NCBI GenBank assembly: GCA_903893315.1
Contig: CAITLU010000013.1
Coordinates: 155,026 to 219,025 of the forward strand
Source: an uncultured bacterium
GTDB taxonomy: Bacteria > Desulfobacterota > Binatia > UBA1149 > CAITLU01
DNA: 64,000 nt
Reading direction: 5' to 3'
The notes below the pieces were generated by a model. That model saw only the letters and a program-made list of their open reading frames with translations. It was not told the DNA's origin and searched no databases. The translations under genes and the position numbers were made by a program. Positions 23,831-39,048 of the stretch are shown piece after piece (position 1 is the stretch's first letter; each line of letters starts with the position of its first letter).

Positions 23831-24907
23831 ATGGACCCGGACATCCGGCCCATGGCACGCGATTTGCTTCTCACCACTGCCAATGGCGAAACGGAGTGCA
23901 GAATGAGGCGAGCAAGTCCCAAGGTAATCGACGCGGCGTCCGCCTCGCCGACGCGGTCGGTTGCAGCGGGCGACGCGGCTGATGGCGGCGCCGCGACCGA
24001 TTCGCCGCTACCCGACAAGATCCCGCGTTTCCTGAGAACCGAGAGGTTGCTGCACTGGGCACTCGCCTTGCCGTTCCTCGGCTGCCTCTTCAGCGCTGTC
24101 GCGCTGGTCGTCGTCTACAACCCGGATCCGACGCGACCTTACCGCTACGTCTTCGCCTGGGCTCACCGCGGCTGTGGTGCCGCACTGTTCATCCTGCCGA
24201 GCCTCGTCCTGCTCACCAGCGGACGCCACATGCGAGTGCTGCTCTACAACATCCGCCAGGCGTGGGGCTGGAGACTCGACGACATCAAGTGGCTGATGCT
24301 GATGGGCCCGGCCACCGTCTTCAAGCGGATCGTGCTGCCCGACCAGGGCAAGTTCAACGCTGCCGAAAAACTGAATTTCATGATGGTGATGGTCTTTACC
24401 CCGCTTTTCATAGCCAGCGGCATCGCGATCTGGCTGCCCGACTACACTTCGCTCGACCCGTTCGCACCGTGGATGTTTCACTGCGCCCTGGCCGCAACCG
24501 GACTGCCGCTGATTCTCGGCCACATGTTCATGGCCATGATCAACCCCGAAACTCGCGTCGGGCTGAGCGGCATGATCACCGGCTCGGTGAGCCGAACCTG
24601 GGCCCAGCATCACTACGCGCGCTGGTATCGCGAGCAGTTTCCCCACCTGGTCGCTGCCGGCGGCGACCACCACAAATCCGGCGCTGAACCGGCAACTGCG
24701 GCGGCCGTGGATGGGCAAACGTCGCCGGAGGTCACATCGAATGAATTGGAGCAACCGCGCGATGCGACAATGCGGGCCGCTGAGAGTAGGGTGGCGTGCG
24801 AAGACGAATATGAATCGAGCGATCCCGGGGGGGACGAGGCTGGATGTGTCCGCGAGGCGTATTTCGCCAGCGATGCAGGTGCTTCGAGAGACGTGATGGC
24901 GCCCTGA
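23831..24907 (+). CDS. Di-heme b-type cytochrome, membrane subunit (FdnI/HydC Ni/Fe-hydrogenase b-cytochrome family)
   Basis: Four predicted transmembrane helices carry His in TM1 (LHWALALPF), TM2 (AWAHRGCG) and twice on TM4 (FHCALAATGLPLILGH). The NAAEKLNF motif is present. The exact start is uncertain. The C-terminal tail is acidic. Confidence 0.7.
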   Translation: MDPDIRPMARDLLLTTANGETECRMRRASPKVIDAASASPTRSVAAGDAADGGAATDSPLPDKIPRFLRTERLLHWALALPFLGCLFSAVALVVVYNPDPTRPYRYVFAWAHRGCGAALFILPSLVLLTSGRHMRVLLYNIRQAWGWRLDDIKWLMLMGPATVFKRIVLPDQGKFNAAEKLNFMMVMVFTPLFIASGIAIWLPDYTSLDPFAPWMFHCALAATGLPLILGHMFMAMINPETRVGLSGMITGSVSRTWAQHHYARWYREQFPHLVAAGGDHHKSGAEPATAAAVDGQTSPEVTSNELEQPRDATMRAAESRVACEDEYESSDPGGDEAGCVREAYFASDAGASRDVMAP

Positions 24908-24996
24908 TTGCATCACTGCCGCTACCCGCAATTTATTGCGCGCATCCGCGATCCTTTGCGCGATTTTGTGCGCGGATATCGGCAGTGAAAGTTCGG

Positions 24997-26499
24997 ATGG
25001 CCACCCTCATGGCGTTCACGAGCGCGTTGTTGGCCGCGGTGCCTGGGATCGTGCGTAACAAATGGAAAGGCGCCCGTCGAAGCTCCGCACGTCGGTTTCA
25101 CACGAATCTAACGACGACGTGTGGACGATGGCATTCGCCATGTGTTCTGCTGTGCCTGATGCTGCTCACTAGCACACCGATGGTCTTCCGTTCCACACCG
25201 GCACGGGCCTCCTGGGTCGAGTCGCTGGTCATGCCGGGCGAAGTCGCGGCCAAGCACGCCAAGATCGAGCACGAATGCACCAAGTGTCACGCACCGCTCG
25301 ACAAGGTGGCGCAGGAAAAACTTTGCCTGGACTGCCACAAGGAGGTGGCCGCGGATCTGCTCGAAAAGCGCGGGTTCCACGGCCAGTCACCCGATGTCAG
25401 CGGACGGCCGTGCAAGACTTGCCACGCCGAGCACAAGGGACGCACCGCCGACCTGGTGCATCTCGACCGCGACAAGTTCGACCACCGGCTGACCGATCAC
25501 CCGCTGGTCGGCGCCCATCTGCTGGCGAAATGCGACGGCTGCCACAAATCCGACAAGCGCTTTCGCGAAGCGCCTCCGCACTGCAGCGACTGTCACACCG
25601 CCAAAGATCCGCACGAAGGTACCCTCGGGCTCACCTGCAACAACTGCCACGATGAGTCAGCCTGGAAATCAGTGCGCTTCAACCACGACACCGTTGCCTT
25701 TCACCTGGAGGGCCGCCACCGTGAAGCGCACTGCGATGACTGTCACAAGACTCGCCTTTTCAAGTCCACCGCGACGGACTGCTTCTCGTGCCACGAGCGC
25801 AAGGACGATCACCACGGCAGCTTCGGCCGCGACTGTCAGTCCTGTCACACGACGCGCGGGTTTGCCGGCACGACGTTCGACCACGCCCGCAAGACGAAGT
25901 TTCCCCTGGTCGGAAAGCACGCGCACGTCGCGTGCGGGAAATGCCACAAAAACGGGCTTGCCGCAGCACTCACGCCGACCAACTGCCACGACTGCCACGA
26001 GTACGACGCGAGCCGTCACGGACTGTTCGGGAGCAAGTGCGAGAGTTGCCACACGCCGGACGACTGGCGGCGCACGATCTTCGACCACGACCGGGACACT
26101 CACTTTCCGTTGCGCGGCCACCACGTCGGTCGCCGCTGCACCGACTGTCACCGCTCGGACCTGCGCGTGGAACGCCCCGACCAGAAGTGTGTCGGCTGCC
26201 ATCGCGACGACGACGTCCACCACGGTCGCCAGGGCACCGACTGCAAACACTGCCACGACGAACGCGGCTGGAGTCGCGACGTGCTGATCGACCACAACGC
26301 AACCCGCTTTGCGCTGACGGGCGCGCATGCGCGGACAGCCTGCCTGCGCTGCCACCAGTCACCGCAGTTCAAGGAAGTCGCGCTGGAGTGCGTCGGCTGT
26401 CACAAGGAAGACGCCTCCGCGCACCGCTGCGAACGCGGCAGCGATTGCGCTCGCTGTCACGACACCTCCAACTTCCACACGATCAAGGCGGCCCACTGA
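24997..26499 (+). CDS. 18-heme c-type cytochrome made of six tandem tri-heme cytochrome c7-type domains
   Basis: There are 18 CxxCH motifs in a periodic pattern of about 75 aa: F-x-H-x(2-3)-H ... CxxCH ... CxxCH ... CxxCH, repeated six times. The start and signal peptide position are uncertain. Confidence 0.85.
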   Translation: MATLMAFTSALLAAVPGIVRNKWKGARRSSARRFHTNLTTTCGRWHSPCVLLCLMLLTSTPMVFRSTPARASWVESLVMPGEVAAKHAKIEHECTKCHAPLDKVAQEKLCLDCHKEVAADLLEKRGFHGQSPDVSGRPCKTCHAEHKGRTADLVHLDRDKFDHRLTDHPLVGAHLLAKCDGCHKSDKRFREAPPHCSDCHTAKDPHEGTLGLTCNNCHDESAWKSVRFNHDTVAFHLEGRHREAHCDDCHKTRLFKSTATDCFSCHERKDDHHGSFGRDCQSCHTTRGFAGTTFDHARKTKFPLVGKHAHVACGKCHKNGLAAALTPTNCHDCHEYDASRHGLFGSKCESCHTPDDWRRTIFDHDRDTHFPLRGHHVGRRCTDCHRSDLRVERPDQKCVGCHRDDDVHHGRQGTDCKHCHDERGWSRDVLIDHNATRFALTGAHARTACLRCHQSPQFKEVALECVGCHKEDASAHRCERGSDCARCHDTSNFHTIKAAH

Positions 26500-29183
26500 T
26501 GGCAACGCCGAAGCACATCGCTCTGTGGATCAGTGTTCTGCTTGCCGCTTTGTCGGCGGCGCCGCTGCATGCCGCCTGCACGGGCGGAGGAACTTCGGGC
26601 CTGGCCCCGCCGGCAGTTTCTTTCCTGCGCAGTTACCGCGCCCCGTTCGGTGCGCCGACTCGCATGGCGGTCGATGCTTCCGGAAAGATCTATGTGACCG
26701 ATCCCTCGCAGGGACAGGTCGTCGTGCGCGAAGCGAGCGGGCGGATCATCTCGCGTGCGACCGTCGCAACGCGCCCGGTGAGCGTCGCGGTCAACGCTGC
26801 CGGCCGCGTCTATGTTGGCGATTCAACTTCGGGCAGCGTCACCGCCTACGACTCAGAGTGGAACGCGGTGCTGCGATTCGGCCGGGGCGACGGCGAATTC
26901 CAGCAACCGAGCGATCTGTCGTTGGAAGCCGCCACCGGCGACGTCTACGTCGCCGACAGCGCGGCCCAACTGGTGAAGGTCTACAGCGCCGACGGCATTT
27001 TCCTGCGTTCATTCGGCGGGCAGGGTAACGGCGACGGCGAATTCAACTACCCGGTAGGCGTATTCGTCGACGCGCCTGCGCGCCGTGTGCTGGTAGCCGA
27101 CCAGCTCAACTATCGAATCCAGGTCTTCGATCTGAGCGGCACTTTCGTCAGTTGCTTCGGCGGGCACGGCAGCGGCGCGGGGAATTTCAACATGCCGCAG
27201 GGCGTGACGGTCGACGGCCTGGGCCGCGTGTACGTCGCCGATGCCGTCGAAGGACGCGTCCAGGTGCTCGACCGCAGCGGCGACTTCGTCGGCTTCATCG
27301 GTGACTTCGGCGACGACGCCGCGCAACTGCGCATTCCCATCGGCATGGTCATCGATCCGTCCAACAGGTTGTTCGTCGCCGCTTCCAACAACGCGCGTCT
27401 CGAAGTGTTCGGGCTCGACACCTTCGCCGATCCGGAAACCATCCTGCCCGCCGTGGTTCGGGTGGAGCCGGAAATGATCGAGCGGGCCACGCCGGGAAAC
27501 TCGATCGGCGCGTACCTGGAAGTGCCGGGATACATGCTCGACCGCATCGACGCCGCCAGCATTGTCGCGAACGGCGTTCCCGCGCTGCCGGGTACGAACT
27601 CGATCGGCGATGGGAATGGTGACGGCGTTGCCGACCTGCGCGTCGAGTTCGCTCCCACGGCTTTGCTGGCCACTCTTCCCGCCGGCGGCATCGGCGGCAT
27701 CGCCATCTCCGGAACTTTGTCCGGCATTCGCTTCGAGGGATCGACGACGGTTCGTGTGAGCACCTGCGGGCCCACCACGGTGTGCCCGCTCGGTGCAGCC
27801 GACCCTCAGTGCAACGAAGCCGTGTGCGACGCGGCAACCGGTTGCACCGTGCGGCCGAAAAACGACGGCGCCGGTTGCGAAGACGGCAGTGCCTGCACGA
27901 TGGACGACGTCTGCGCCGCTGGCATATGCACCGGTGCGACGCTGGCCTGCAACGACGTCAACGTCTGCACCGACGACGGCTGCGACACCGCTGCCGGTTG
28001 CGTCTTCGCCGCCAATACCGCGCCGTGCGACGACGCGAACGCCTGCACCACCGACGACACCTGTGCAGCACAAACCTGTTCGGGCGCGGCGATAACGTGC
28101 AACGACGGCAATGCCTGCACCGACGACGGCTGCGACACCGTGACCGGCTGCGTATTCGCCGCCAATAACGCACCGTGTGACGACGCGAGCATCTGCACCA
28201 CGGACGACACATGCGTGGACGGCGTCTGCACGGGAACGCGGATTTCCTGCAATGACGGCAACCTATGCACCGACGATGTCTGTGATCCGCTGGCCGGCTG
28301 CACGCACGCCGATAATCGCGGACCTTGTGACGACGGCGATCCGGGAACGGTAGCCGACACCTGCGACGGCAACGGTCTGTGCCGTGGCCAGACCGCGACA
28401 GGCCAATACGCGATCCTGCAGTGGCCCCCGGAATCGTCCGGGCGCCGGACGGTGACGATTGCGGCTCGTGGCCTGGTCGGCGGCAACGTGTGCGCCGAAA
28501 ACATCAGCATCGGCCGATCGGTCGAGGTGAACGGCGACGTTCTGGCCTGGTCGCCCGTCGATCGCGCGCTCAGCTTGCGTTCCGGCGTCTGGATCGACGG
28601 CAACGTCGTGAGCGGCGGCGGAGCGATTACCGGCCTCGAATTCGCAACCATCGGCGGCCTGGTCGATTCGGCCGGCGGCACCGCCGAATTCGAAGACTGC
28701 TTCGCTGCACGCTACCAAGCCGCGCAGCGCCGCGCCGAGTTCGTGACGTTGCTCCCCACGCCCGGAATGACCACGGGATCGCTGCGGCTCGGCGTGTTGG
28801 AAGAACGGCGAATTCCCGAGACGGGAGACGTCGGCAGCGGCCTGATCGTGATCGACGCCGACAGCATCAACCTGGCGACCTCGAGTCGGCTGACGATCGT
28901 CGGCGACGCATCAACCGAACAGGTCGTGGTCCGCGTTCGCGGCCGGCTTATCCTGGAACGCGGCGCGAGCATCGTCGTCGAAGGATTTCCGGCAGAGCGA
29001 CTGATCTTCGTGGTGGACGGAACAATCAACCTGCGGTTGCAGACGCGCGTCGATGGTTCGCTGTTCGGAGCCGGGACGGTCCGGATCGGCAGCGGCGGCG
29101 CGGTCAGCGGCGCGGTCATCGGCCGCACCGTCGACCTGGCTCATTCGGCAAGTATCAATCTGCAACCGTTCGTGGGGTGGTGA
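26499..29183 (+). CDS. Secreted NHL-repeat beta-propeller protein with cysteine-rich tandem repeats and a C-terminal beta-helix-like region
   Basis: The ATG overlaps the upstream TGA (ATGA). The signal peptide is MATPKHIALWISVLLAALSAAPLHAAC. NHL blades are present (YVADsxnxRVqVfD-like, about 6). Four repeats of about 51 aa follow, of the form CNDGNxCTDDGCDtxxGCvfaaNxxPCDDxxxCTTDDTC. A G/V/I-rich repetitive tail ends the protein. Confidence 0.8.
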   Translation: MATPKHIALWISVLLAALSAAPLHAACTGGGTSGLAPPAVSFLRSYRAPFGAPTRMAVDASGKIYVTDPSQGQVVVREASGRIISRATVATRPVSVAVNAAGRVYVGDSTSGSVTAYDSEWNAVLRFGRGDGEFQQPSDLSLEAATGDVYVADSAAQLVKVYSADGIFLRSFGGQGNGDGEFNYPVGVFVDAPARRVLVADQLNYRIQVFDLSGTFVSCFGGHGSGAGNFNMPQGVTVDGLGRVYVADAVEGRVQVLDRSGDFVGFIGDFGDDAAQLRIPIGMVIDPSNRLFVAASNNARLEVFGLDTFADPETILPAVVRVEPEMIERATPGNSIGAYLEVPGYMLDRIDAASIVANGVPALPGTNSIGDGNGDGVADLRVEFAPTALLATLPAGGIGGIAISGTLSGIRFEGSTTVRVSTCGPTTVCPLGAADPQCNEAVCDAATGCTVRPKNDGAGCEDGSACTMDDVCAAGICTGATLACNDVNVCTDDGCDTAAGCVFAANTAPCDDANACTTDDTCAAQTCSGAAITCNDGNACTDDGCDTVTGCVFAANNAPCDDASICTTDDTCVDGVCTGTRISCNDGNLCTDDVCDPLAGCTHADNRGPCDDGDPGTVADTCDGNGLCRGQTATGQYAILQWPPESSGRRTVTIAARGLVGGNVCAENISIGRSVEVNGDVLAWSPVDRALSLRSGVWIDGNVVSGGGAITGLEFATIGGLVDSAGGTAEFEDCFAARYQAAQRRAEFVTLLPTPGMTTGSLRLGVLEERRIPETGDVGSGLIVIDADSINLATSSRLTIVGDASTEQVVVRVRGRLILERGASIVVEGFPAERLIFVVDGTINLRLQTRVDGSLFGAGTVRIGSGGAVSGAVIGRTVDLAHSASINLQPFVGW
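27948..28390 (+). repeat. Intragenic tandem DNA repeat (about 150 bp unit, about 3 copies) encoding the cysteine-rich modules
   Basis: Units beginning tgcaacgacg...ctgcaccgacgacggctgcgacacc recur at 27948, 28098 and 28248, with decreasing identity. Confidence 0.6.
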
Positions 29184-29191
29184 AGACGTCG

Positions 29192-30580
29192 ATGGCATCG
29201 AAGCTGACAGCGTTCTCGTGGCTGCTCCTGACGTGGGCGGCGTACGCGTCGGGGCCGGCATACGCGCTCGACCCGCCGCACGACGTCAGTCGGTCGATCG
29301 ACTGCGCCAGTTGCCACATCTCGCACCATGCGGCGGGCGGCTCGATCACCCGGATCAGCGGTAACTCCAACCTGTGCGCGAGTTGCCACTCGGCCGGCGG
29401 CGTTGCGGCCACAAGCGCGCTCGCCAACAGCGACCAGGCGATCCCCGGCGTGAGCGGCACTTCACACCGCTGGGATTCCGGCGCGTCCGGCTGGGTGAAG
29501 AAGAATCCCGCCAACACCTCGACCGGAACGGTGCGCTCCACCGGCGTCTTCACCGGGCGCTATCGCAAGACCTACACGATCACCATCACCGCCGACGGTG
29601 TCGGCAACGCCGGTGGTGCCCAGTTCGCGTGGACCACGTCCACGCCGCAGCGCAATACGTACCTCGATGCGTTCCCAGCGCTGGCATACAACGGCAGCAG
29701 CGGCACGCAGGATTGGAGCGCAACCGCATGGCAGGAGAGCGGCGAGGCCGACGGCGTTGCCGCCGGCGTCGTGCGCGTCGTGACCAACGCCGCGTGCGCC
29801 GCCGGCAACTGCCTTCGCGTGGGCGGCGTAATCATCAACGGCATCAGCGTGGCGCGTGCGGCCGATCTTCACGCGGGCACGGCCGCCATGCTGACGTTCA
29901 GCTACCGCCGCCAGCTTGCTGCCTGTCCAAATACGAACACCGACGGGGTGGCGCTTCAGGTAAGCGCGGACGCTGTTTCGTGGACGACGCTGGCTACTTA
30001 CGTGCTGAACGCGTGCGATGCAGCGCAGGTGGAACAGGCCTTCGACGTCACGGCCTACATCGCGGCGACAACCGCGATTCGCTTCCTCGGTACCGGAACC
30101 AGCGCAGCCACCGACTTCATCTACGTCGACGACGTGCAGATTGAGAACCTCGTTGCCGGCGGCGGCGCCGCCGGCGTTTCGGCTGCCGGCACCGTAGCCC
30201 TCGACGAGGGCATCAGCGTGACGTTCGGCAACGGGACATCATCGCCCTACTTCAAGCTCGGCAGCCAGTGGACCGTCTACGCCAACCCGGACATCAACCA
30301 GCCGACGTCCTTCGCTCTTGCCGCGCGCCTGGCTAATGAAAAGGTCACCTGCTCCACCTGCCACAACGAGCACAGCCAGTTGGCTGAGCCGTTCGATCTG
30401 GCGGCGCCGGCCTACCCGTTGACGGGGAACGGCGGGGAGGGACGACACAACCAGCGTCTCGACAACGACATCAACCAGATATGCGTCGACTGCCACAGTG
30501 CGCGCAACGTCACCGCGGCGCAGAGTTCACATCCGGTGGGAATCGTCATCCCCGCCACCGGCTCGTACAAGAACCCATAG
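29192..30580 (+). CDS. Tetra-heme c-type cytochrome with a large non-heme central domain, secreted
   Basis: The signal peptide is MASKLTAFSWLLLTWAAYASGPAYA. Two CASCH motifs lie near the N-terminus, and CSTCH and CVDCH lie near the C-terminus. They flank about 300 aa of beta-rich sequence with no heme motif. Confidence 0.8.
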   Translation: MASKLTAFSWLLLTWAAYASGPAYALDPPHDVSRSIDCASCHISHHAAGGSITRISGNSNLCASCHSAGGVAATSALANSDQAIPGVSGTSHRWDSGASGWVKKNPANTSTGTVRSTGVFTGRYRKTYTITITADGVGNAGGAQFAWTTSTPQRNTYLDAFPALAYNGSSGTQDWSATAWQESGEADGVAAGVVRVVTNAACAAGNCLRVGGVIINGISVARAADLHAGTAAMLTFSYRRQLAACPNTNTDGVALQVSADAVSWTTLATYVLNACDAAQVEQAFDVTAYIAATTAIRFLGTGTSAATDFIYVDDVQIENLVAGGGAAGVSAAGTVALDEGISVTFGNGTSSPYFKLGSQWTVYANPDINQPTSFALAARLANEKVTCSTCHNEHSQLAEPFDLAAPAYPLTGNGGEGRHNQRLDNDINQICVDCHSARNVTAAQSSHPVGIVIPATGSYKNP

Positions 30581-30588
30581 GATCCACC

Positions 30589-31971
30589 ATGACGCGGCTC
30601 AACCGATTTCTCAGCGCGGCCTGCATTCTCCTGGCGTCATCGCTCGCCGGAATCGCCGCGGCCCAGACCCCGGCGCCGTTGCCTGCCGCTGCCTTTCCTC
30701 TGCCGCTCGACAAGAAGATGAACATGGTGCGCTGCACCACGTGTCACGACGCGCACTTCCAGAGCGGCGGCAACGGCATGCTGCTGCGCAGCGGCGACAT
30801 CAACGCTCTGTGCACCGATTGTCACACTCTGGCCGACACCGCTTCTCCGGCCGCGCACCTCGATCCCTCCACCGGCGTGCTGTGGCCCGGCCCGCAGTAC
30901 GGCACACTTTTCCCGCGCGTAACCGACACGTCACAGCGCGGCTTCTGCAGCAACTGTCACCAGGCGCACGGCTGGCCCGACGAGGCCAACGCGGGGCAGG
31001 ACTACCCATCGCTGCTGGTCAATCGCGAAGAGAACCTATGTTTCGCCTGTCACGACGGAAGCCCCGCGGCCAAGAACGTCATTGCCTCGTTCGCCAAGAG
31101 TTACCGCCACCCCACTACCGACTACAGCAACCGTCACACCACCACCGAGGACGGCGTAGCGGCAAACTTCGGCACGTCCAATCGTCACGCCGAATGCACG
31201 GACTGTCACGACGCCCACGTCGCCCGCGCCGACGCTACCGCACCGGTTGCGCCGGCGGCTTGGAACAGCATCCGCGGAGTCAGTCGAATCGCGGTCACCA
31301 ACGGCGCCGCCGGTACCGCGCCGGCGTACACATACCGCGGACCCACCGACACAACCGCGCCCGTGGCCGAATATCAGCTGTGTTTCAAGTGTCATTCGTC
31401 GTGGACCACCCGGCCCGCGGGCCAGTCGGACCTGGCCGTGCGTTTCAACACCAACAACCCCTCCTTCCACCCGGTGGAAGGTCAGGGCAAGAACCTCAAC
31501 ATCAACGTCAACTCCTTCGTGCCAGGCTGGAATGCGCTGCGCACGACATACTGCAGCGACTGTCACGCAGACAACGACGCGAGCGTGCGTGGCCCGCACG
31601 GCTCTCAGTACCGCTACCTGCTCAAACGGCCCTATGTGGCGAGCGGCGCGTCGCGCACGACCGCCGCAACCGAGGCGTGCTTCGACTGCCACACCTTTGC
31701 CACCTACGCTAGCACCGTGTCCAGCGACACCGTGCTTGGCTACAGCCGCTTCAACCGGCCCGGTTTTGAAGAAGGCCACTCTTTCCACGTCGTCAAAAAG
31801 GGGGCTCCCTGCTACGCCTGCCACGACTCGCACGCTTCCAGCACCAAGCCGCATCTGATCGTCACCGGCCGGGTTCCGGGTCTGAACAGCTACACCGAAA
31901 CGGCAACCGGCGGCAGTTGCTCCCCTACGTGCCATGGCACACAAACCTACAGGATAAACTATGCGCGCTGA
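30589..31971 (+). CDS. Deca-heme c-type cytochrome (paired-CXXCH, Geobacter-type), secreted
   Basis: The signal peptide is MTRLNRFLSAACILLASSLAGIAAA. There are nine CxxCH motifs plus one CxxxCH (CSPTCH). Confidence 0.85.
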   Translation: MTRLNRFLSAACILLASSLAGIAAAQTPAPLPAAAFPLPLDKKMNMVRCTTCHDAHFQSGGNGMLLRSGDINALCTDCHTLADTASPAAHLDPSTGVLWPGPQYGTLFPRVTDTSQRGFCSNCHQAHGWPDEANAGQDYPSLLVNREENLCFACHDGSPAAKNVIASFAKSYRHPTTDYSNRHTTTEDGVAANFGTSNRHAECTDCHDAHVARADATAPVAPAAWNSIRGVSRIAVTNGAAGTAPAYTYRGPTDTTAPVAEYQLCFKCHSSWTTRPAGQSDLAVRFNTNNPSFHPVEGQGKNLNINVNSFVPGWNALRTTYCSDCHADNDASVRGPHGSQYRYLLKRPYVASGASRTTAATEACFDCHTFATYASTVSSDTVLGYSRFNRPGFEEGHSFHVVKKGAPCYACHDSHASSTKPHLIVTGRVPGLNSYTETATGGSCSPTCHGTQTYRINYAR

Positions 31972-32394
31972 TCCACGCACCGCGGTCTCACTCGCCACGT
32001 CGAATACGTGCGCCGCGCGTTTACGCGCTCCGTGCGCCGCCGGCCCTGAGCACCTTTTGGCGAATCGTCGAGCATCCGAAGACTACCGTGCGATCCTGCA
32101 AGTACGGCGCGTTAGCGCGCAAACAATTGCTCGGTTCGGGGCTCGCGCATCAGGACGGTTCGTTGACTTCGCGTCGGCTGCGGCCGGATTGGGTTGGCCC
32201 GCGATACCTGAAATCACCAGGGCACCGGAAATGCGCGCCGACGATGCTGCGTCCTGGAACAGGCAGAATGCGGCGAAAAACAACGCGAAGACTCCATGAA
32301 CGCTTCGGACAGGCTCTCGTCCGCCATCGTCTCGATTTTGCCGAAAGCATCCGGCAGCGGGTTGGCTCGCGTGTTGCTTATCAAACGACCTCTC

Positions 32395-33486
32395 ATGAAT
32401 GTGGCGTTTCGCACAAGGTGGACGAGGGACGCACGTTTTGCGGTGAACACTGCGGCGCTCGCGTGGTGCATGGGCATGGTCGCGGGCTGCGCGGCACAGC
32501 AAAAGCCGCAGGACATGTTCTGGCCCGACCCTCCGGACAAGCCGCGCATCAGGTTCGTGCGCAACCTCCAATCCAAGAGCGATCTCGGCGCCCCGGCCTT
32601 GCTCGAAACGCTGGTCGGACGCGACAAGGAGCAGGCCCTTTACCAGCCGATGGGCCTTGCGCTTTCCGATGACTGCCAGCGCCTCTACGTAGCCGATCGG
32701 GTCTGGAACTCCGTTTTCGTTTTCGATTTCCAATCCAAGGCCGTGCGCACCATCGGAGGCGACGAGCGTTATCCGCTGACAATGCCGGTCGGCGTAGCCC
32801 TGGACGGGGACGAGAACGTCTACGTCGCCGATACCGGCACACGCACGGTCCGCGTCTACGACAAGACCGGAAAGTTTCTGCGCGGCATCGGCAAGGACCA
32901 GCTCGTGCGGCCGACGGGAATCACCATCGACGCAACGCGCGGGCGGCTCTACGTCGTCGACACCGGACAGAACGACACTCCCGAAGCGCACCGGGTGAAA
33001 GTATTCGACCTCGCGGGCGGCCTGATACGAGAGATCGGACGGCGCGGCGAAAGCGACGGCGAATTCAATTTCCCGACCTTCGCCAACCTCGACGCGCAAG
33101 GCCGGCTCTACGTCGTCGACTCCGTGAACAGCCGTATCCAGGTCTTCGATCCGGATGGGAAGTTCTTGTGGAAGTTCGGCAGTTCCGGCGACCACATCGG
33201 GAATTTCGCGCGCCCCAAGGGCGTGGCGGTCGACAGCTTCGGCAACATCTACGTGGTCGATTCGCGCTGGGGCAACGTGCAGATCTTCAACCAGCAGGGG
33301 CAGCTGCTGATGCTTTTCGCCGGAGTCGGAGAGTACCCCGGACTGATGATCAACCCCGGCGCCATCGTCATCGACCGCCACAATCGAATCTACGTCTCCG
33401 ACACGCTGGGGAGACGCGTGAGCATCTACGAACTCATCGGCACATCTGCCGAAGACAGCCTCGAGTCACGGGGCACAGCGCCATAA
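32395..33486 (+). CDS. NHL-repeat beta-propeller lipoprotein
   Basis: The lipobox is MVAGC. Six NHL-like blades are present (LYVADrvwNsVfVFD, VYVADTGTRTVRVYD, LYVVDTGQ..., LYVVDSVNSRIQVFD, IYVVDSRWGNVQIF, IYVSDTLGRRVSIYE). Confidence 0.8.
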   Translation: MNVAFRTRWTRDARFAVNTAALAWCMGMVAGCAAQQKPQDMFWPDPPDKPRIRFVRNLQSKSDLGAPALLETLVGRDKEQALYQPMGLALSDDCQRLYVADRVWNSVFVFDFQSKAVRTIGGDERYPLTMPVGVALDGDENVYVADTGTRTVRVYDKTGKFLRGIGKDQLVRPTGITIDATRGRLYVVDTGQNDTPEAHRVKVFDLAGGLIREIGRRGESDGEFNFPTFANLDAQGRLYVVDSVNSRIQVFDPDGKFLWKFGSSGDHIGNFARPKGVAVDSFGNIYVVDSRWGNVQIFNQQGQLLMLFAGVGEYPGLMINPGAIVIDRHNRIYVSDTLGRRVSIYELIGTSAEDSLESRGTAP

Positions 33487-33604
33487 GCCGCTGGGGGAGG
33501 GGCGTATTCCGGCGAATGATGCGCGAAGTCGGACATCGAGAAATACAAACGAAGCTAGAGAGCGTGAAACGAACAGACGGAAAGGAACGATAGGAGGTTC
33601 CATC

Positions 33605-34255
33605 ATGAAAAGAGGAAGATCATTATTAATCGCCGCATCCTTGCTGGTGCCAACCATGGCGTCGGCGGGGACCATCGCCAACACGAAGCACGACTTGAGC
33701 GCGACCTCGACCGCGGTGATCAAGTCGGGGACTCAAACCGACACCTGCGTGTTCTGCCACGTATCGCACAGCAGCGCTCCGGGCGTGGCGCGGCCGTTGT
33801 GGAGCCACACGATGACCACCCAGAACCTGACCTGGGCGCCGACCACGACGGTGCGCGGGACGGTACTGCCGACCGCGATCACCAGCGCAGCGCTGACCGG
33901 CTCACGTTCATGCATGAGTTGTCACGACGGGACAGTCGCGCTCGGCGATCTGCTCAACGGAACCGGCGGCACCGTCAGCGGAACCAACGTCACGGCCGGC
34001 AAGCTGACCGGTGGCATCAACCTGCTCAACCCGGCATCGATGCAGAGCAACCATCCGATCGGTGTTGCCAAGCCGGCGGCGGCCACCGGCTTCACGGCCT
34101 TCAAGACCGTCGCGGCCAGCAGCCCCGTCAACTACGATTCGTCCGGTTTCGTACAGTGCGACTCGTGCCACAACCCGCATGACAACACCTTCGTGCCGTT
34201 CCTGAGGATCAGTCCGGCGGGCGGTGCGATCTGCACCTCCTGCCACGACATCTGA
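33605..34255 (+). CDS. Tetra-heme c-type cytochrome, small secreted (216 aa)
   Basis: A strong RBS (taggagg) sits 8 nt upstream of ATG 33605. The signal peptide is MKRGRSLLIAASLLVPTMASA. CVFCH, CMSCH, CDSCH and CTSCH are present. The N-terminal motif TKHDLS...CxxCHxSH...PLW is shared with the 39045 cytochrome. Confidence 0.85.
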   Translation: MKRGRSLLIAASLLVPTMASAGTIANTKHDLSATSTAVIKSGTQTDTCVFCHVSHSSAPGVARPLWSHTMTTQNLTWAPTTTVRGTVLPTAITSAALTGSRSCMSCHDGTVALGDLLNGTGGTVSGTNVTAGKLTGGINLLNPASMQSNHPIGVAKPAAATGFTAFKTVAASSPVNYDSSGFVQCDSCHNPHDNTFVPFLRISPAGGAICTSCHDI

Positions 34256-34352
34256 CCACGGTGCCAATGCGGCGGAGAATGCCCTCTAGTGATTGGGATT
34301 CCCCGCCGCAACGGTCTAGTAGTTGACCCCTGGAGTTCGGACCCGGGGGGGC

Positions 34353-34682
34353 ATGGTGACGAGTAGAAACTTCTGCGGAATCCTTTCGCTCGTCGTTCTG
34401 TGCGTGTCGCTCGTTGCAGCGCCGGGATCGGCAACCACGCTCGGCGACATCATCTACTCGCGCAAAGCCGGCCCGGGAGATTGGGCCCCGGCCTACTTCC
34501 CGCACTGGGTCCATCGCATCAAGTACAAGTGCTACGCGTGCCACGACACGCTGTTCCCCATGCGGCGCGGCGGTAATCCGACAATGGCGGGGATGTCGAC
34601 CGGCGCTTCGTGCGGCGCGTGTCACAACGGCAAGACTGCCTTCGGGCTGGACACCTGCCAGCGATGCCACGTTTCGCAATGA
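34353..34682 (+). CDS. Tri-heme cytochrome c7 (PpcA-like periplasmic carrier)
   Basis: A signal peptide is followed by FPHWVHRIKYKCYACH...CGACHNGKTAFGLDTCQRCH. The three CxxCH motifs have c7 spacing. The mature protein is about 80 aa. Confidence 0.85.
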   Translation: MVTSRNFCGILSLVVLCVSLVAAPGSATTLGDIIYSRKAGPGDWAPAYFPHWVHRIKYKCYACHDTLFPMRRGGNPTMAGMSTGASCGACHNGKTAFGLDTCQRCHVSQ

Positions 34683-35938
34683 GGCACCGCGCGACGATCT
34701 GCATGATCGTCGCGCTCGTCGCGGCTGCCGGAGGCTGCAGCCGCGAAACGCGCTACCGCGCGCTCGACGTTTTGTTCGAGGGCGTCCCGCCACCCGGCCA
34801 GGTCGTCAGCAACGAACCGGTCACGCATCGTCCTCGTCGTTCGCCTCCACCTCCTCCGATTCCGCCTCCCGTCGCGTTCACGCCGCTGCCGCCCAACGCA
34901 GGCCTCGCGTCGCTGCAAACCTGGGACGACGTCGTGCGACTGCTGCCCAAAGACCAGGCCGGCAATCCGGACTGGACTGCGGCGGTCGACGAAAAAATGA
35001 TCGCCCCGCGTTCCGTACTGGACCCCGACTCCGCGGAGTCGGAAGCGATCACTCTTGACGCCCTCGATGCTTCGTCGGTCGCTCCGGATGTCGAACTCGC
35101 CGCCAAGTCGGATCCGGCTTTCGATGTCTCCTTCTCACACCGGAAGCACGGGACCTGGCTGAGCTGCGGGAACTGCCACCCTGCCCCCTTCGAGAAGAAA
35201 GCCGGGCAGACGCCGATGACCCCGGCCAGCGTGCACGCACAAGAGTACTGCGCTGCCTGTCACGGCAAGGTCGCGTTCGACATCGGACCCAATTGCCTGT
35301 CGTGCCACCTTCGCACCATGCCGCGCGACGCGGCCGGACAGGTAGATTGGAATCGCGCACTGGATGAGCAGCGCATCGCGCCGCGCCCTGGACCGGGATC
35401 TAAAACCGTCGATCAGGAGGTTCTCAAACTCGATATAGAAATGACGCCGCCGGCCCAGCCCGCGTTTGCGTCGGTATTTTCACACGGCACACACACGCGG
35501 TTGATAGCTTGCGCCAGTTGCCATCCGAGTCCCTACTCGGCCAAGGTTCGCACGGCGATGACCGACACCGCCGAACTGCATTCGTCCCGCTATTGCGGTT
35601 CCTGCCACGGCACGGTGTCGTTTGGAATCACCGGATTCTGTCAGCGCTGCCACCCGGCTCTCGAAAAAGCGCGTCAGCACCAGGAAACTCTGGACCTCGA
35701 TGTGGCGGTGACGCCCAAGGCGCAGACCGGCGGCGCCACGACGTTCTCGCACAAGCAGCACCGCTGGGTGGAGTGTGCCACCTGTCACAGCAACCTCTTC
35801 ACCAACACGCCGGGGGCAACCACCATGCCGAAGGCCGATATCTACGGCGGCAAGTACTGCGCCCCCTGCCACGGCAAGGTGACCGACGATCTCACCGTCA
35901 GTTGCCGGCGCTGTCATTCGGGCGGTGACGCCCGATGA
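34679..35938 (+). CDS. Nona-heme lipoprotein cytochrome (three tandem c7-type domains behind a Pro-rich linker)
   Basis: The ATGA overlap is with the c7 gene. The lipobox-like sequence is VALVAAAGGCS, followed by a PPPPPIPPP linker. The module FSH(x)xH...CxxCH...YCxxCHG...CxxCH is repeated three times. Confidence 0.85.
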   Translation: MRHRATICMIVALVAAAGGCSRETRYRALDVLFEGVPPPGQVVSNEPVTHRPRRSPPPPPIPPPVAFTPLPPNAGLASLQTWDDVVRLLPKDQAGNPDWTAAVDEKMIAPRSVLDPDSAESEAITLDALDASSVAPDVELAAKSDPAFDVSFSHRKHGTWLSCGNCHPAPFEKKAGQTPMTPASVHAQEYCAACHGKVAFDIGPNCLSCHLRTMPRDAAGQVDWNRALDEQRIAPRPGPGSKTVDQEVLKLDIEMTPPAQPAFASVFSHGTHTRLIACASCHPSPYSAKVRTAMTDTAELHSSRYCGSCHGTVSFGITGFCQRCHPALEKARQHQETLDLDVAVTPKAQTGGATTFSHKQHRWVECATCHSNLFTNTPGATTMPKADIYGGKYCAPCHGKVTDDLTVSCRRCHSGGDAR

Positions 35939-35963
35939 CCGGCAGCACACTTGCGGCATCGTG

Positions 35964-37979
35964 ATGAAGCGCGCCGCACGGCCAGCGATCGCGTGCGGCG
36001 TTCTCGCGTGCATGGTGCTCACCATCACGCCTGCGGCCGAGGCCGGACTGAACTGGGGGCTGGGTCGCTGGGAAGGCGACACCACGCTTCTCGTGAACTG
36101 GGAAACCCAGCACGACAAACGGACTCAGGACCGTTACGACACGCTTCTCTTCGAAGAGCGCCTGCGTCTGCGCAACACCGGCGCCTTCATCTTCGATCCG
36201 CGCTTGCTGACGCTCAATCTCAGCGGATCGTTCGGAGCGCCTCAGGAAATGGCGCTGGGGCACACCGACACGTCGCTGCGGGTGGGCAACGGAACTCTGT
36301 TCGACTATGCCTTCGAGGGCCTGGTCCTGGCGGATACGGCTTACCCGACCACTCTGTTCGCCACCCGCAGCCAGACCATGCTTACGCAGGGCTTCGGCGG
36401 TCGCTCTGATCTGACCTTCCAGAGCTTCGGCGGCACCTTCGATCTGCACGAAAACAATTTCCTCGAGGCCCGCGGGTGGCGCGGATTGACCGCGACGCTG
36501 GACGCCCGCGAGGAGTCGCTCCTCGAAAATTCGTCGTATTTCGGCAGTCCGTTCAAACGCGACGAGACCCGACAGATAGTCAACGCGCAGGCGCACCGCT
36601 CCGGCGAGAACTCGGACCTCGATCTGCACTACGAACTCAACTCCGTAAGCGACCCGCTCAACCCGTCGAACGTATTCGACAGCCACACATTTCGTGCGAC
36701 TCACAGTCTCGACTTCGGTCCCACGCTCAACCGGCGCCTCGACTCGGGACTCTATTCCTTCATCCGCAGCGGCGCATCGAACGGCAGTTACGTGTCGGCG
36801 AGCGAGGCTCTGCACGTCGACCACCATCGCGACTTCTCGACCAACTATCGCTACGACTTTTCCCAGAGCGATTCGGAATCCGGCACCACCACTACCAATA
36901 CCGCCAACGCCACGCTGCTGAGGCGGTTCTATCGCAACCTCTCGACCACGCTCGGCGCGCGCGGATCACTGCAGAATTTCCCGAACGGCGACAAGTACCT
37001 TTACGGAGGCGAGGCCGGCGCCGACTACCGGCGCGCGATTCCCGGCCAGGGGCAACTGTTCGCGGACACCCACCTCGGTTACGAGGTTGACAACAACAAC
37101 TTCACCTCGTCGTTCGTCGATGAACCCGACGAAAGGCAGACGGTTCCAATCGATGTCGGCACCGGCGCCGGGTTCACCCTGACTCATCCATTCGTGGTCA
37201 TCGGATCGATCGTGGTGGTCGACCTCGGTCCCGACGGCAACTCGCGCTTCGACACCATCGTCAACCGGGACTACCTCGTCGTCGCGGAAGGCAGCCGCAC
37301 CCGGATCGTGCCGTTGCCCGACAGCCCCGTGCTTCGCGCCGGCGATCAGTTGTCGGTGAGCTACACCTACACCATCGCGCCCAGTCTCGAGTATTCAACC
37401 TTCGACACGAGCATACGCACCGGTCTGGAATTCCCGTGGCTTTCGCTATCCTACGAACACATGATGAGCGATCAGACGCGTCTGTCCGGGACTTCCGCCC
37501 CGCAATTCCTGATCGATCAGAACGCGGACCGGTTTCAACTCGAGCTGAGGAGCCGGTGGAAACGCCTGCTCGCGCAATCGGCGGTCGATTACGAAATTCT
37601 CAAATCGTCGATCGTCGACTCCAACGGATTGCGCTTCGGCCAACTTCTCGTCTACCAAATCAACGCCGGCCTGGTCGCGGAGTTGACCGCTGACGAGAAC
37701 TTCGTCGACTACCCGAAAGAAAATCGCAGTTCCGAGTCCTACCTGGCGCGGGCTTCGATCGACTGGACGGCCTTCGAAGGGCTTTCCGCTTCGCCTTTCA
37801 TCGACTACCGTAGTTTTCACGACTCGACCGTCATGAGCGACGTTGTCGTCGAGGCCGGAATGCGCCTGCACTGGACCTATCGAAGCGTGGACATCTTCCC
37901 AACTGTCACCTGGACCGACTATCGCAACAGGATGGATGGCGTTCATGCCGAACTGCGCATCACCCGACGTTTCTTCTGA
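35964..37979 (+). CDS. Outer-membrane beta-barrel protein (putative porin of a porin-cytochrome conduit)
   Basis: The signal peptide is MKRAARPAIACGVLACMVLTITPAAEA. The protein is about 670 aa with Y/T/S/G/N-rich alternating beta-strand texture. The C-terminal ...ELRITRRFF ends in an aromatic Phe, the OMP sorting signature. Confidence 0.7.
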   Translation: MKRAARPAIACGVLACMVLTITPAAEAGLNWGLGRWEGDTTLLVNWETQHDKRTQDRYDTLLFEERLRLRNTGAFIFDPRLLTLNLSGSFGAPQEMALGHTDTSLRVGNGTLFDYAFEGLVLADTAYPTTLFATRSQTMLTQGFGGRSDLTFQSFGGTFDLHENNFLEARGWRGLTATLDAREESLLENSSYFGSPFKRDETRQIVNAQAHRSGENSDLDLHYELNSVSDPLNPSNVFDSHTFRATHSLDFGPTLNRRLDSGLYSFIRSGASNGSYVSASEALHVDHHRDFSTNYRYDFSQSDSESGTTTTNTANATLLRRFYRNLSTTLGARGSLQNFPNGDKYLYGGEAGADYRRAIPGQGQLFADTHLGYEVDNNNFTSSFVDEPDERQTVPIDVGTGAGFTLTHPFVVIGSIVVVDLGPDGNSRFDTIVNRDYLVVAEGSRTRIVPLPDSPVLRAGDQLSVSYTYTIAPSLEYSTFDTSIRTGLEFPWLSLSYEHMMSDQTRLSGTSAPQFLIDQNADRFQLELRSRWKRLLAQSAVDYEILKSSIVDSNGLRFGQLLVYQINAGLVAELTADENFVDYPKENRSSESYLARASIDWTAFEGLSASPFIDYRSFHDSTVMSDVVVEAGMRLHWTYRSVDIFPTVTWTDYRNRMDGVHAELRITRRFF

Positions 37980-38001
37980 TCCGCCTTGCGGCACCCGGCC
38001 G

Positions 38002-39048
38002 GTGGCTGCGGCCGGCCGGCGCTGGGCGCGCGGACTGGCGTTGGCGGCGCCGGCCCTGCTCGCTGCGGCCGCGGCTGCCTGCTCGTCGGGTTGGCCGACC
38101 CACGGCCAGCCCGCGGAGCCCGCGCGGATGGTGTGGCCCGAAGCGCCGGACGCGCCTCGCATAGAACTGGTTTCCACGTTCAGCGCCGGCTCCGATCTCG
38201 GCATCGAACTCTCCATATGGTCGCGTATTGCCAACGTCATTTCAGGCGGCGGCGAAACGCGGATGGTACGCCCCAGCGGCGTGAGTGCCGCCGGCGGACG
38301 CATCGCGGTGGCCGATCCGGGAGCCGGACTCGTTCACCTCTACGATCCGGCCCGCCGCCGCGCTCTGGCGCTGCGCGAGTGTGGTGACACGGCGCTCGCA
38401 GAGCCGGTCAGCGCAATTCTGCTCGGCGAGCGCCTGTACGTGGCCGACGCGAGCGCGGCGCGCATTTTCGTATTCGATCTCGACGGCGCCTGCATAGCCG
38501 GCTGGCCGCTTGAAGAGGGATCGCGTCCGGCCGGGTTGGCGGCCGACCCCGCGCGGTCGAGAATCTACGTGGCGGAAGCCGCATTACATCGCGTCGTCGT
38601 CTACGATCCACAGGGCAACAGAGTTCTGGAAATCGGCCGCCGCGGCGCCGCGCCCGGCCAGTTCAATTATCCAACTTGGCTGGCAGTAGACGACGCCGGT
38701 AACATATACGTAACGGACGCGCTCAACTTCCGGGTGCAGATCTTCGATCCGGAGGGCCGGCCGACCGGCGTCTTCGGTGAGCAAGGCGACGCCTCCGGAG
38801 CGCTGTCGCGACCAAAGGGCATAGGTATCGATCGTCATGGGCACATCTATCTGGTCGATGCTCTTTTCGACGCCGTGCAGATGTTCGATCGCGAGGGCCA
38901 CTACCTGATGGTCTTCGGCGGCAGCGGCCGCGAGCCGGGGCTTTTCTGGCTTCCTTCCGGCCTCGCCGTCGATGGCGACCGCATCTACGTTTCGGACTCG
39001 TACAATCAGCGGGTGCAGGTGTTCCGCTTCCTGGCAGACGAGTCATGA
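38002..39048 (+). CDS. NHL-repeat beta-propeller protein (probable lipoprotein)
   Basis: The GTG start gives MAAAGRRWARGLALAAPALLAAAAAAC-SSG. The NHL blades are LYVADASAARIFVFD, IYVAEAALHRVVVYD, IYVTDALNFRVQIFD, IYLVDALFDAVQMFD and IYVSDSYNQRVQVF. Confidence 0.75.
   Translation: MAAAGRRWARGLALAAPALLAAAAAACSSGWPTHGQPAEPARMVWPEAPDAPRIELVSTFSAGSDLGIELSIWSRIANVISGGGETRMVRPSGVSAAGGRIAVADPGAGLVHLYDPARRRALALRECGDTALAEPVSAILLGERLYVADASAARIFVFDLDGACIAGWPLEEGSRPAGLAADPARSRIYVAEAALHRVVVYDPQGNRVLEIGRRGAAPGQFNYPTWLAVDDAGNIYVTDALNFRVQIFDPEGRPTGVFGEQGDASGALSRPKGIGIDRHGHIYLVDALFDAVQMFDREGHYLMVFGGSGREPGLFWLPSGLAVDGDRIYVSDSYNQRVQVFRFLADES

Follow-up and report, generated by a model that had tools for sequence, protein, structure and literature searches.

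An 18-haem triheme-repeat cytochrome encoded next to an FdnI-type cytochrome b: a probable PCC3-type periplasmic haem wire in a Binatia genome

We analyzed a 64,000-nucleotide stretch of DNA from an uncultured bacterium of the Binatia (assembly GCA_903893315.1, contig CAITLU010000013.1, positions 155,026 to 219,025), referred to below as the window; coordinates are positions within it unless a locus is named. The subject of this analysis is a plus-strand open reading frame (ORF) at 24844..26499, which encloses a stretch (24997..26499) that a first-pass annotation, made from the sequence alone, had described as a hexameric c7-type polymer cytochrome. The ORF encodes a multihaem c-type cytochrome with 18 haem-binding motifs, referred to here as the 18-haem protein. 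It lies directly downstream of a gene for a dihaem cytochrome b (23831..24907, +), as the first-pass annotation had stated, and is followed by tightly packed genes of the same operon (26499..31971, +). The 18-haem protein is probably a soluble periplasmic haem wire of the PCC3 type that connects the quinone pool with outer-membrane cytochromes.

The ORF contains exactly 18 CxxCH motifs; a search of it for the variant haem motifs CxxxCH, CxxxxCH and CxxCK found none. In 20,000 permutations of the same 500 residues, the mean number of CxxCH motifs was 0.33 and the maximum was 4. The distances between motif starts (16, 29, 40 / 17, 18, 32 / 16, 18, 33 / 17, 18, 33 / 17, 18, 33 / 16, 19 residues) group the motifs into six triheme units of 66–75 residues each, in agreement with the count and grouping of the first-pass annotation. 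That annotation also called all six modules regular, which is true of modules 2–6 (34–38% identity to module 4) but not of module 1, whose spacing is irregular. Module 1 (25210..25425, haems 1–3) is divergent, lacks the F-x-H element and has a long insert between haems 2 and 3. It is followed on the same strand by module 2 (25426..25650, haems 4–6), module 3 (25651..25848, haems 7–9), module 4 (25849..26052, haems 10–12), module 5 (26053..26256, haems 13–15) and module 6 (26257..26460, haems 16–18), in which A-H-R-C-E-R-G replaces the canonical D-x-H-x-G. A short C-terminal tail and the stop codon (26461..26499, +) complete the gene, the stop codon sharing one base with the ATG of the gene that follows. 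At 429 residues, the mature protein has 23.8 residues per haem, and it contains a single Met (mature residue 8, outside the repeats). Public metagenome assemblies contain an identical protein on contigs as long as 394 kb.

The ligand set is strongly conserved. Across the 27 18-haem orthologs (52–78% identity), all 18 motifs and 17 further His residues are invariant, and the invariant distal His of module 1 are H33, H74 and H92 (numbering of the public gene call P0001). In 98 diverse repeats drawn from 120 relatives, the repeat positions H12, H24 and H56 are invariant or at least 90% conserved, within the consensus W-x4-F-D-H-x3-T-x-F-P-L-x-G-x-H-x4-CxxCH-x12-CxxCH-x2-D-D-x-H-x-G-x-L-G-x2-CxxCH; a conserved Met was sought across the same 98 repeats and none was found. 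The first-pass annotation had looked to conserved bis-His ligands, and the ligand His are indeed conserved in both samples, although not in the F-x-H-x2-H layout that it had assigned to them. One position departs slightly: in the window protein the third distal His of module 4 lies one residue away from its usual column (A-S-R-H-G), whereas all 26 other orthologs have H-x-G. Because there is one conserved distal His per haem, the haems are expected to be bis-His; we predict that 17 are so ligated and that one near the C-terminal end may be His/Cys.

The candidate for this exceptional ligand is the sole non-motif Cys of the mature protein (26428..26430, +), which lies between motifs 17 and 18 in the sequence ASAHRCERG and occupies the position of the distal His of relatives. 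Of the 27 18-haem orthologs, 16 have Cys at this site, the window protein among them, and six of the 16 lack any His in the stretch; x-[HQRK]-R-C-x-R-G takes the place of D-x-H-x-G in these Cys-bearing proteins. Among relatives with more than 18 haem motifs, 92 of 93 have His, and no Cys, at this site. The substitution makes this residue a candidate ligand of a His/Cys-ligated haem with a very low potential.

The protein is predicted to be exported by the Sec pathway. Its signal peptide (25051..25209, +), which the first-pass annotation had left ambiguous and which is present, has a basic n-region, a hydrophobic core (CVLLCLMLLTSTPMVF) and an A-R-A cleavage motif, with predicted cleavage between ARA and SW. 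The orthologs have classical signal peptides ending in A-x-A right before a conserved S/T-W-x-E-S-L-V-M-P-G; since this boundary maps in the window to CVLLCLMLLTSTPMVFRSTPARA followed by SWVESLVMPGE, the mature protein is predicted to start at 25210. Neither a lipobox at the N-terminus nor a membrane anchor was found in the 18-haem protein. Export by the Tat pathway, suggested by 'SARRF' in the n-region, was considered and rejected, as the motif is absent from the orthologs; in addition, c-type cytochromes mature after Sec export.

The most likely start of the gene is GTG 25051. The spacer between the cytochrome b stop codon and this start (24908..25050, +) holds the alternative in-frame starts GTG 24985, ATG 24997, ATG 25009, TTG 25027/25030 and GTG 25039, and a scan for start codons between 25051 and 25159 found none, so the start is either GTG 25051 or one among those at 24985–25039. 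The first-pass annotation had the start overlap the 3' end of the cytochrome b ORF, but only the longest possible start (ATG 24844) does; all of those from 24985 to 25051, including 24997, where that annotation itself placed the start, lie past the cytochrome b stop at 24907. A scan of the spacer for promoters and terminators gave nothing above chance, and its one weak 5-bp stem, at 24947–24960, is within chance expectation. The public gene call P0001 (446 residues) starts at ATG 25159, inside the hydrophobic core, and cuts off part of the signal peptide; because gene calls truncate it in this way, localization predictions from deposited sequences would mislead. The gene call for ortholog P0002 is shorter still, and those for P0050, P0065 and P0097 have no signal peptide at all.

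The first-pass annotation was correct in relating the repeats to the c7/c3 class. Pfam Cytochrome_C7 (PF14522) matches the whole protein in four stretches with 65.3 bits (cutoff 24.8), and a profile of the repeat searched against all PDB sequences found GSU1996 (3ov0_A) as the best match (E=7.3e-8, partial matches), followed by sulfate-reducer cytochromes with nine and with 16 haems, ActA and cytochromes c3. On the basis of these PDB matches we place the repeat in the class III (c3/c7) superfamily. Module 1 also matches Pfam Cytochrom_c3_2 (E=4e-10) and Cytochrom_CIII and is, judged by these profiles, more c3-like. No NCBIfam model was found for the 18-haem protein, and phmmer with the whole protein against the PDB gave only chance matches to PilB zinc-ribbon regions.

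The kinship is nonetheless distant, and the repeat is not canonical c7. Like c7 in the strict sense (PpcA type), which has three CxxCH motifs per ~70-residue unit, the protein has three motifs in each of its units and three bis-His haems would be held in each. The arrangement differs in three respects. Motif spacing in PpcA-type c7 is ~24–28 and then 14–15 residues, whereas here it is 16–17 and then 18; the F-x-H-x2-H pair of c7 precedes motif 1, whereas here the second His follows 12 positions after the first, in G-x-H (F-x-H-x11-H); and the third distal His of c7 lies between motifs 1 and 2, whereas here it falls between motifs 2 and 3. Two other genes of the window serve for comparison: a canonical c7 (about 34353–34682) and a 3 x c7 protein (about 34679–35938), encoded 8 kb downstream, both have F-x-H-x2-H and a spacing of 27–28/15. 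The first-pass claims that the modules share the spacing of c7 and its F-x-H-x2-H element therefore do not stand.

Nor is the protein a clean 6 x c7, as had been proposed. In the register of the first-pass annotation (F-x-H plus three motifs), single units score 12.7–16.9 bits against the Pfam c7 profile, mostly as partial matches. Moving the register by one haem, so that each unit joins the final haem of one repeat to the first two of the next (spacing 32–33 and then 16–17 residues), gives scores of 20.9–25.7 bits and covers the whole profile. We accordingly rejected F-x-H plus three motifs as the c7 equivalent, as the shifted register scores higher. Alignment of a repeat pair with the window's own c7 domains by hhalign (15 columns, 82% probability) places haem 1 of the repeat on haem III of c7 and so arrives at the shifted register as well. 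If the protein is read as c7-like, the shifted register implies an organization of 2 + 5x3 + 1 haems.

A model of two modules (including modules 4 and 5) computed with AlphaFold2 has a mean predicted local distance difference test score (pLDDT) of 86, which supports a defined fold. Structure searches matched no solved structure and did not demonstrate structural equivalence to c7.

GSU1996 (PDB 3OV0; relatives GSU0592 and GSU2210), a dodecahaem cytochrome with four c7-type domains, resembles the 18-haem protein in being a periplasmic single-chain triheme polymer with ~24–26 residues per haem. Each GSU1996 domain contains one His-Met haem (PMC10138318), whereas the 18-haem protein has none; motif spacing and His layout also differ, and the similarity to the 18-haem repeat is remote and local. 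The GSU1996 domain type is represented in the window by the gene at about 34679–35938 (F-S-H-x2-H, spacing 28/15), separate from the 18-haem gene. The first-pass annotation framed the protein by the Geobacter polymers alone, which overlooks a very large repeat family, already described, to which PCC3 cytochromes belong.

Among the candidates that it scored, a protein search gave 2241 relatives at E≤1e-5, and an exhaustive search of cluster representatives found 4550 at E≤1e-3 and 935 at E≤1e-30. Haem counts are multiples of three (18, 21, 24, 27, 30, 33 or 36) in 116 of the 120 best relatives. Only metagenome-assembled genomes (MAGs) labelled Candidatus Binatia or 'Deltaproteobacteria bacterium' contain the 18-haem form; longer forms are spread over Burkholderiales (Roseateles, Rubrivivax), Rhodocyclaceae, Nitrosomonadales, Nitrospira, Myxococcota, Acidobacteriota, Planctomycetota and other groups. 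Homology to the 24–27-haem proteins of Rubrivivax, Rhizobacter and Methylotenera extends over the full length (38–46% identity, E to about 1e-190), and identity is 39–43% to the proteins encoded in Roseateles and Nitrosomonadales loci with PCC3 gene order.

The genes around these relatives identify the system. In He et al. (2017; PMC5566968), two W-x3-H-x13-H motifs together with SGxxG are the signature of the conserved PCC3 inner-membrane protein, which is proposed there to bind two b haems in the manner of ferric reductase/NOX domains. Among 80 related loci, 51 have a pair of W-x3-H-x13-H motifs in the gene that ends immediately upstream of the wire gene on the same strand, and SGxxG is present in all but one of the upstream genes listed with this pair. 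The full PCC3 gene order is seen in loci L017, L023 and L026. Roseateles loci encode, in order, the inner-membrane protein, a 24-haem protein and a 46-haem protein; the gammaproteobacterial locus (L017) encodes the inner-membrane protein, a 21-haem protein, a 16-haem protein and an 896-residue haem-free protein ending in Phe. Thus, across these loci a 21–24-haem protein and then a 16–46-haem protein follow the inner-membrane protein. Hoover et al. (PMC9900912; Gallionellaceae 'Cluster 20') describe PCC3 periplasmic subunits with 21, 24 or 27 haems, which they suggest could span the periplasm.

Because the loci of its relatives show PCC3 organization, the window protein is a short homologue of the PCC3 periplasmic cytochrome and, by homology, a short member of the PCC3 'periplasmic multihaem cytochrome' family. 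The likeness includes the triheme repeat itself, haem counts in multiples of three, a cytochrome gene directly after that of a His-rich membrane protein, and a porin (in the window, a porin candidate) and other large cytochromes encoded nearby. The window differs in its host, which is of a Binatia-type lineage and not Proteobacteria; in its downstream genes, which encode NHL proteins and mid-size cytochromes and not one giant extracellular cytochrome; and in its membrane partner, an FdnI-type cytochrome b in place of the PCC3 inner-membrane protein (about 300 residues, five helices, two W-x3-H-x13-H).

The cytochrome b gene encodes a dihaem protein of the FdnI/HydC type (Pfam PF01292, Ni_hydr_CYTB, E=4.4e-13) with uncertain start (in-frame ATGs at 23831, 23852 and 23903). 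It aligns with Escherichia coli FdnI (1kqf_C, E=1.9e-13), including both His of transmembrane helix 4: the H-x13-H pair in FHCALAATGLPLILGH aligns with a His pair of 1kqf_C that we take to be the FdnI haem ligands H155 and H169. The score against TIGR01583 (formate dehydrogenase gamma subunit) is 80 bits, under the equivalog cutoff, and the protein is therefore not a formate dehydrogenase subunit proper. Its core is 83% identical to the gene at the same position in the closest ortholog locus (L005/L007), and the same cytochrome b also precedes the 18-haem gene in L009 and L010. The C-terminal ~95 residues (24620–24907) form an acidic, low-complexity tail, the sequence of which is unlike the tail of the 83%-identical L005 ortholog.

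The pairing has a counterpart in Geobacter CbcL, the b domain of which is presumably also of the FdnI/HydC type. CbcL is described as an inner-membrane quinone oxidoreductase that joins a dihaem b domain and a periplasmic domain with nine haems, all bis-His, in a single fusion (PMC9129911). In both systems a b-type membrane cytochrome would be coupled to an all-bis-His periplasmic multihaem c module; CbcL is one fused polypeptide with 9 haems, whereas here there are two ORFs, at least 77 nucleotides apart, and 18 haems.

More distant 18-haem orthologs (L002–L004, L006, L008 and L011–L014) have the PCC3 inner-membrane protein, and in addition a divergent gene for a 2x[4Fe-4S]/FAD-NAD(P) protein with a hydrophobic N-terminal stretch (L002 5261–6568, − strand). 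We considered whether their upstream proteins could be the same cytochrome b and rejected this, as the forced alignment reaches 25–29% identity; this low identity and the absence of a shared Pfam family place them in a different family. Locus L008 (Candidatus Binatia MAG JBIOJG010000059.1, 664–6332) contains both membrane proteins: a Fer4/FAD gene on the − strand comes first, and genes for an FdnI-like cytochrome b, the PCC3 inner-membrane protein and the 18-haem protein follow in this order. The locus looks transitional between the common architecture and the one found in the window. The conserved feature is thus a His-rich membrane haem protein followed by the wire, which implies that the identity of the membrane protein has changed in the window lineage.

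Among loci L008 and L011–L086, the gene for the PCC3 inner-membrane protein stands before the wire gene in many phyla. In most of these loci a gene close by encodes a protein that combines a hydrophobic helix at the N-terminus with two 4Fe-4S motifs and a Pyr_redox_3 FAD/NAD(P) domain. Judged by their domains, the inner-membrane protein and the Fer4/FAD protein look like a split transmembrane electron module of the NOX/ferric-reductase type. We found no mention of the Fer4/FAD partner in the passages on PCC3 that were consulted, and the window has no such neighbor.

Downstream, the 18-haem stop codon overlaps the ATG of a gene (26499–29183, +) for an 894-residue NHL protein with a lipoprotein-type signal (L-H-A-A-C), an NHL beta-propeller, at least four Cys-rich 'Dicty_CTDC'-like repeats and a DUF7305 end. 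Genes for a 4-haem protein (29192–30580, +) and a 9(+1)-haem protein (30589–31971, +) complete the tightly packed group, and the order of an NHL gene (880–990 residues) and then multihaem cytochrome genes after the 18-haem gene is also found in L002, L004, L005 and L006. Further plus-strand genes encode an NHL protein (32296–33486), a tetrahaem protein (33605–34255), the canonical c7 and the 3 x c7 protein (9 haems, its domains joined by long linkers) introduced above, a 671-residue porin candidate (about 35964–37979), another NHL protein (to 39048) and an 11(+1)-haem protein (39045–40754). In the single c7, as in GSU1996-type domains, a Met-rich loop precedes the second haem motif. The porin candidate has a signal peptide, no Pfam match, 60 windows of alternating hydrophobicity and a C-terminal RRFF. 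In all, six more cytochrome genes with about 40 further haem motifs lie downstream, and the plus strand contains 58 CxxCH motifs between 25 and 41 kb. The genes at 32296..40754 likely encode the outer-membrane end of the pathway; those at 33605–40754 resemble in gene content the Uet cluster of Tenderiales, which serves extracellular electron uptake (bioRxiv 10.1101/2022.05.06.490989).

In the pathway that we favor, one end of the 18-haem chain would dock against the periplasmic side of the FdnI-type dihaem cytochrome b, which would pass electrons to or take them from the quinone pool, and the other end would meet the cytochromes, NHL propellers and porin encoded downstream. The 18 haems would form one continuous chain, with a wire length of about 1 nm per haem by analogy with GSU1996. 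Electrons could then move between inner membrane and cell surface with no need of diffusible carriers, either outward, reducing an external acceptor, or inward, in an uptake of the kind proposed for PCC3. The first-pass annotation had envisaged a periplasm-spanning wire fed by a quinol-oxidizing subunit; this remains plausible and matches the proposals in the PCC3 papers (PMC5566968, PMC9900912), although electrons may flow either in the direction that it implied or in reverse.

Several points weigh against a wire of this kind. The full-length AlphaFold2 model, with 27 orthologs, has a pLDDT of 40, too low to give the overall shape and length of the 18-haem protein. A chain of 18 haems may be too short to bridge a periplasm of 20–30 nm alone, and the published PCC3 subunits have more haems (21–27; PMC9900912). 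The PCC3 inner-membrane protein itself is missing from the window, where tblastn with four such proteins gave no match. With a gap of 90–143 nucleotides between the cytochrome b gene and the 18-haem gene, translational coupling of the two cannot be assumed, and adjacency of the genes is no proof of contact between the proteins. Finally, the PCC3 papers call the system 'functionally unverified' and its components lack experimental support.

The limited length of the chain bears on a second role, in which the protein would float in the periplasm as an electron store, taking up to 18 electrons from cytochrome b and releasing them to various partners once acceptors become available, as proposed for GSU1996. 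A soluble protein with a cleavable signal peptide and neither lipobox nor membrane anchor would suit such a capacitor, and so would a chain that may, with 18 haems, fall short of crossing the periplasm. GSU1996, the best solved relative, has been described as a periplasmic capacitor (PMC10138318). We nevertheless regard this as unlikely, because the position of the gene beside that of a membrane haem protein is strictly conserved across phyla, together with porin and extracellular cytochrome genes, which points to a fixed component of a pathway. The two roles are, in any case, compatible with each other.

The porin candidate raises a third arrangement, in which the 18-haem chain would thread the 671-residue beta-barrel candidate as MtrA does in MtrB, taking electrons through the outer membrane, and smaller c7 proteins would cover the periplasm. 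The candidate is encoded in the same cluster and has a signal peptide, a C-terminal Phe and strongly alternating hydrophobicity, the c7 and 3 x c7 cytochromes are available as possible periplasmic carriers, and the low residue-to-haem ratio is like that of MtrA-type wires (PMC5566968). Gene order speaks otherwise: the 18-haem gene adjoins its inner-membrane partner and lies 9.4 kb from the porin gene, whose immediate neighbors are other cytochrome and NHL genes in a Uet-like arrangement, and in PCC3 loci it is the second, larger cytochrome gene that adjoins the porin. An insert in the outer membrane is improbable on these grounds.

Least credible by far is the idea that the protein is a multihaem enzyme that reduces or oxidizes a soluble substrate, its active site being the unusual C-terminal haem. 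His/Cys or open-site haems do mark catalytic or sulfur-handling cytochromes such as TsdA, SoxXA and DsrJ, and a conserved Cys replaces the distal His in the window clade. Against this, bis-His ligation is conserved for 17 haems, and neither a CxxCK or extended motif nor a domain foreign to cytochromes is present. Moreover, 11 of the 27 18-haem orthologs, like 92 of the 93 longer relatives, keep the ordinary His, so that the Cys reads as clade-specific tuning and not as the function of the family.

Returning to the PCC3-type wire, two points are most worth following, the partner swap and the clade-specific replacement of His by Cys near the last haem. We offer a joint explanation of the two as a tentative and still rather doubtful proposal: that the wire has been rewired in a Binatia-type lineage, where a quinone-reactive, FdnI-type cytochrome b would first have joined the inner-membrane module (L008) and then replaced it (the window, L007, L009 and L010), and where the distal His-to-Cys change in 16 of the 27 18-haem orthologs would gate or bias electron flow through a haem of very low potential. 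The partner swap, seen in the window and its closest relatives with L008 as an intermediate carrying both genes, makes it possible to test which cellular pool of electrons the wire is connected to. If the rewiring is real, it amounts to a natural experiment in which the same wire is plugged into different cellular electron pools, and it would be the first hint of extracellular electron exchange in Binatia. The cluster places a large gene set for extracellular electron transfer (about 58 haem motifs, a porin candidate and NHL propellers) in this group, for which we found almost nothing published on multihaem cytochromes.

Long single-chain haem wires are a candidate route from the inner membrane to minerals, electrodes and partner cells, and no PCC3-type protein has yet been studied biochemically. 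The 18-haem protein adds to a known and very large family and leaves the current picture of such systems unchanged. It is the shortest regular member in our sample and, as only one of its modules is irregular, could be the most tractable to express and solve. The wider family sample ranges from 13 to 94 CxxCH motifs, with 18–36 haems common. Among proteins P0121–P0141, drawn from the cluster representatives, the same triheme repeat reaches 94 CxxCH motifs in one 2321-residue polypeptide, and others have 81, 79, 78 and 70.

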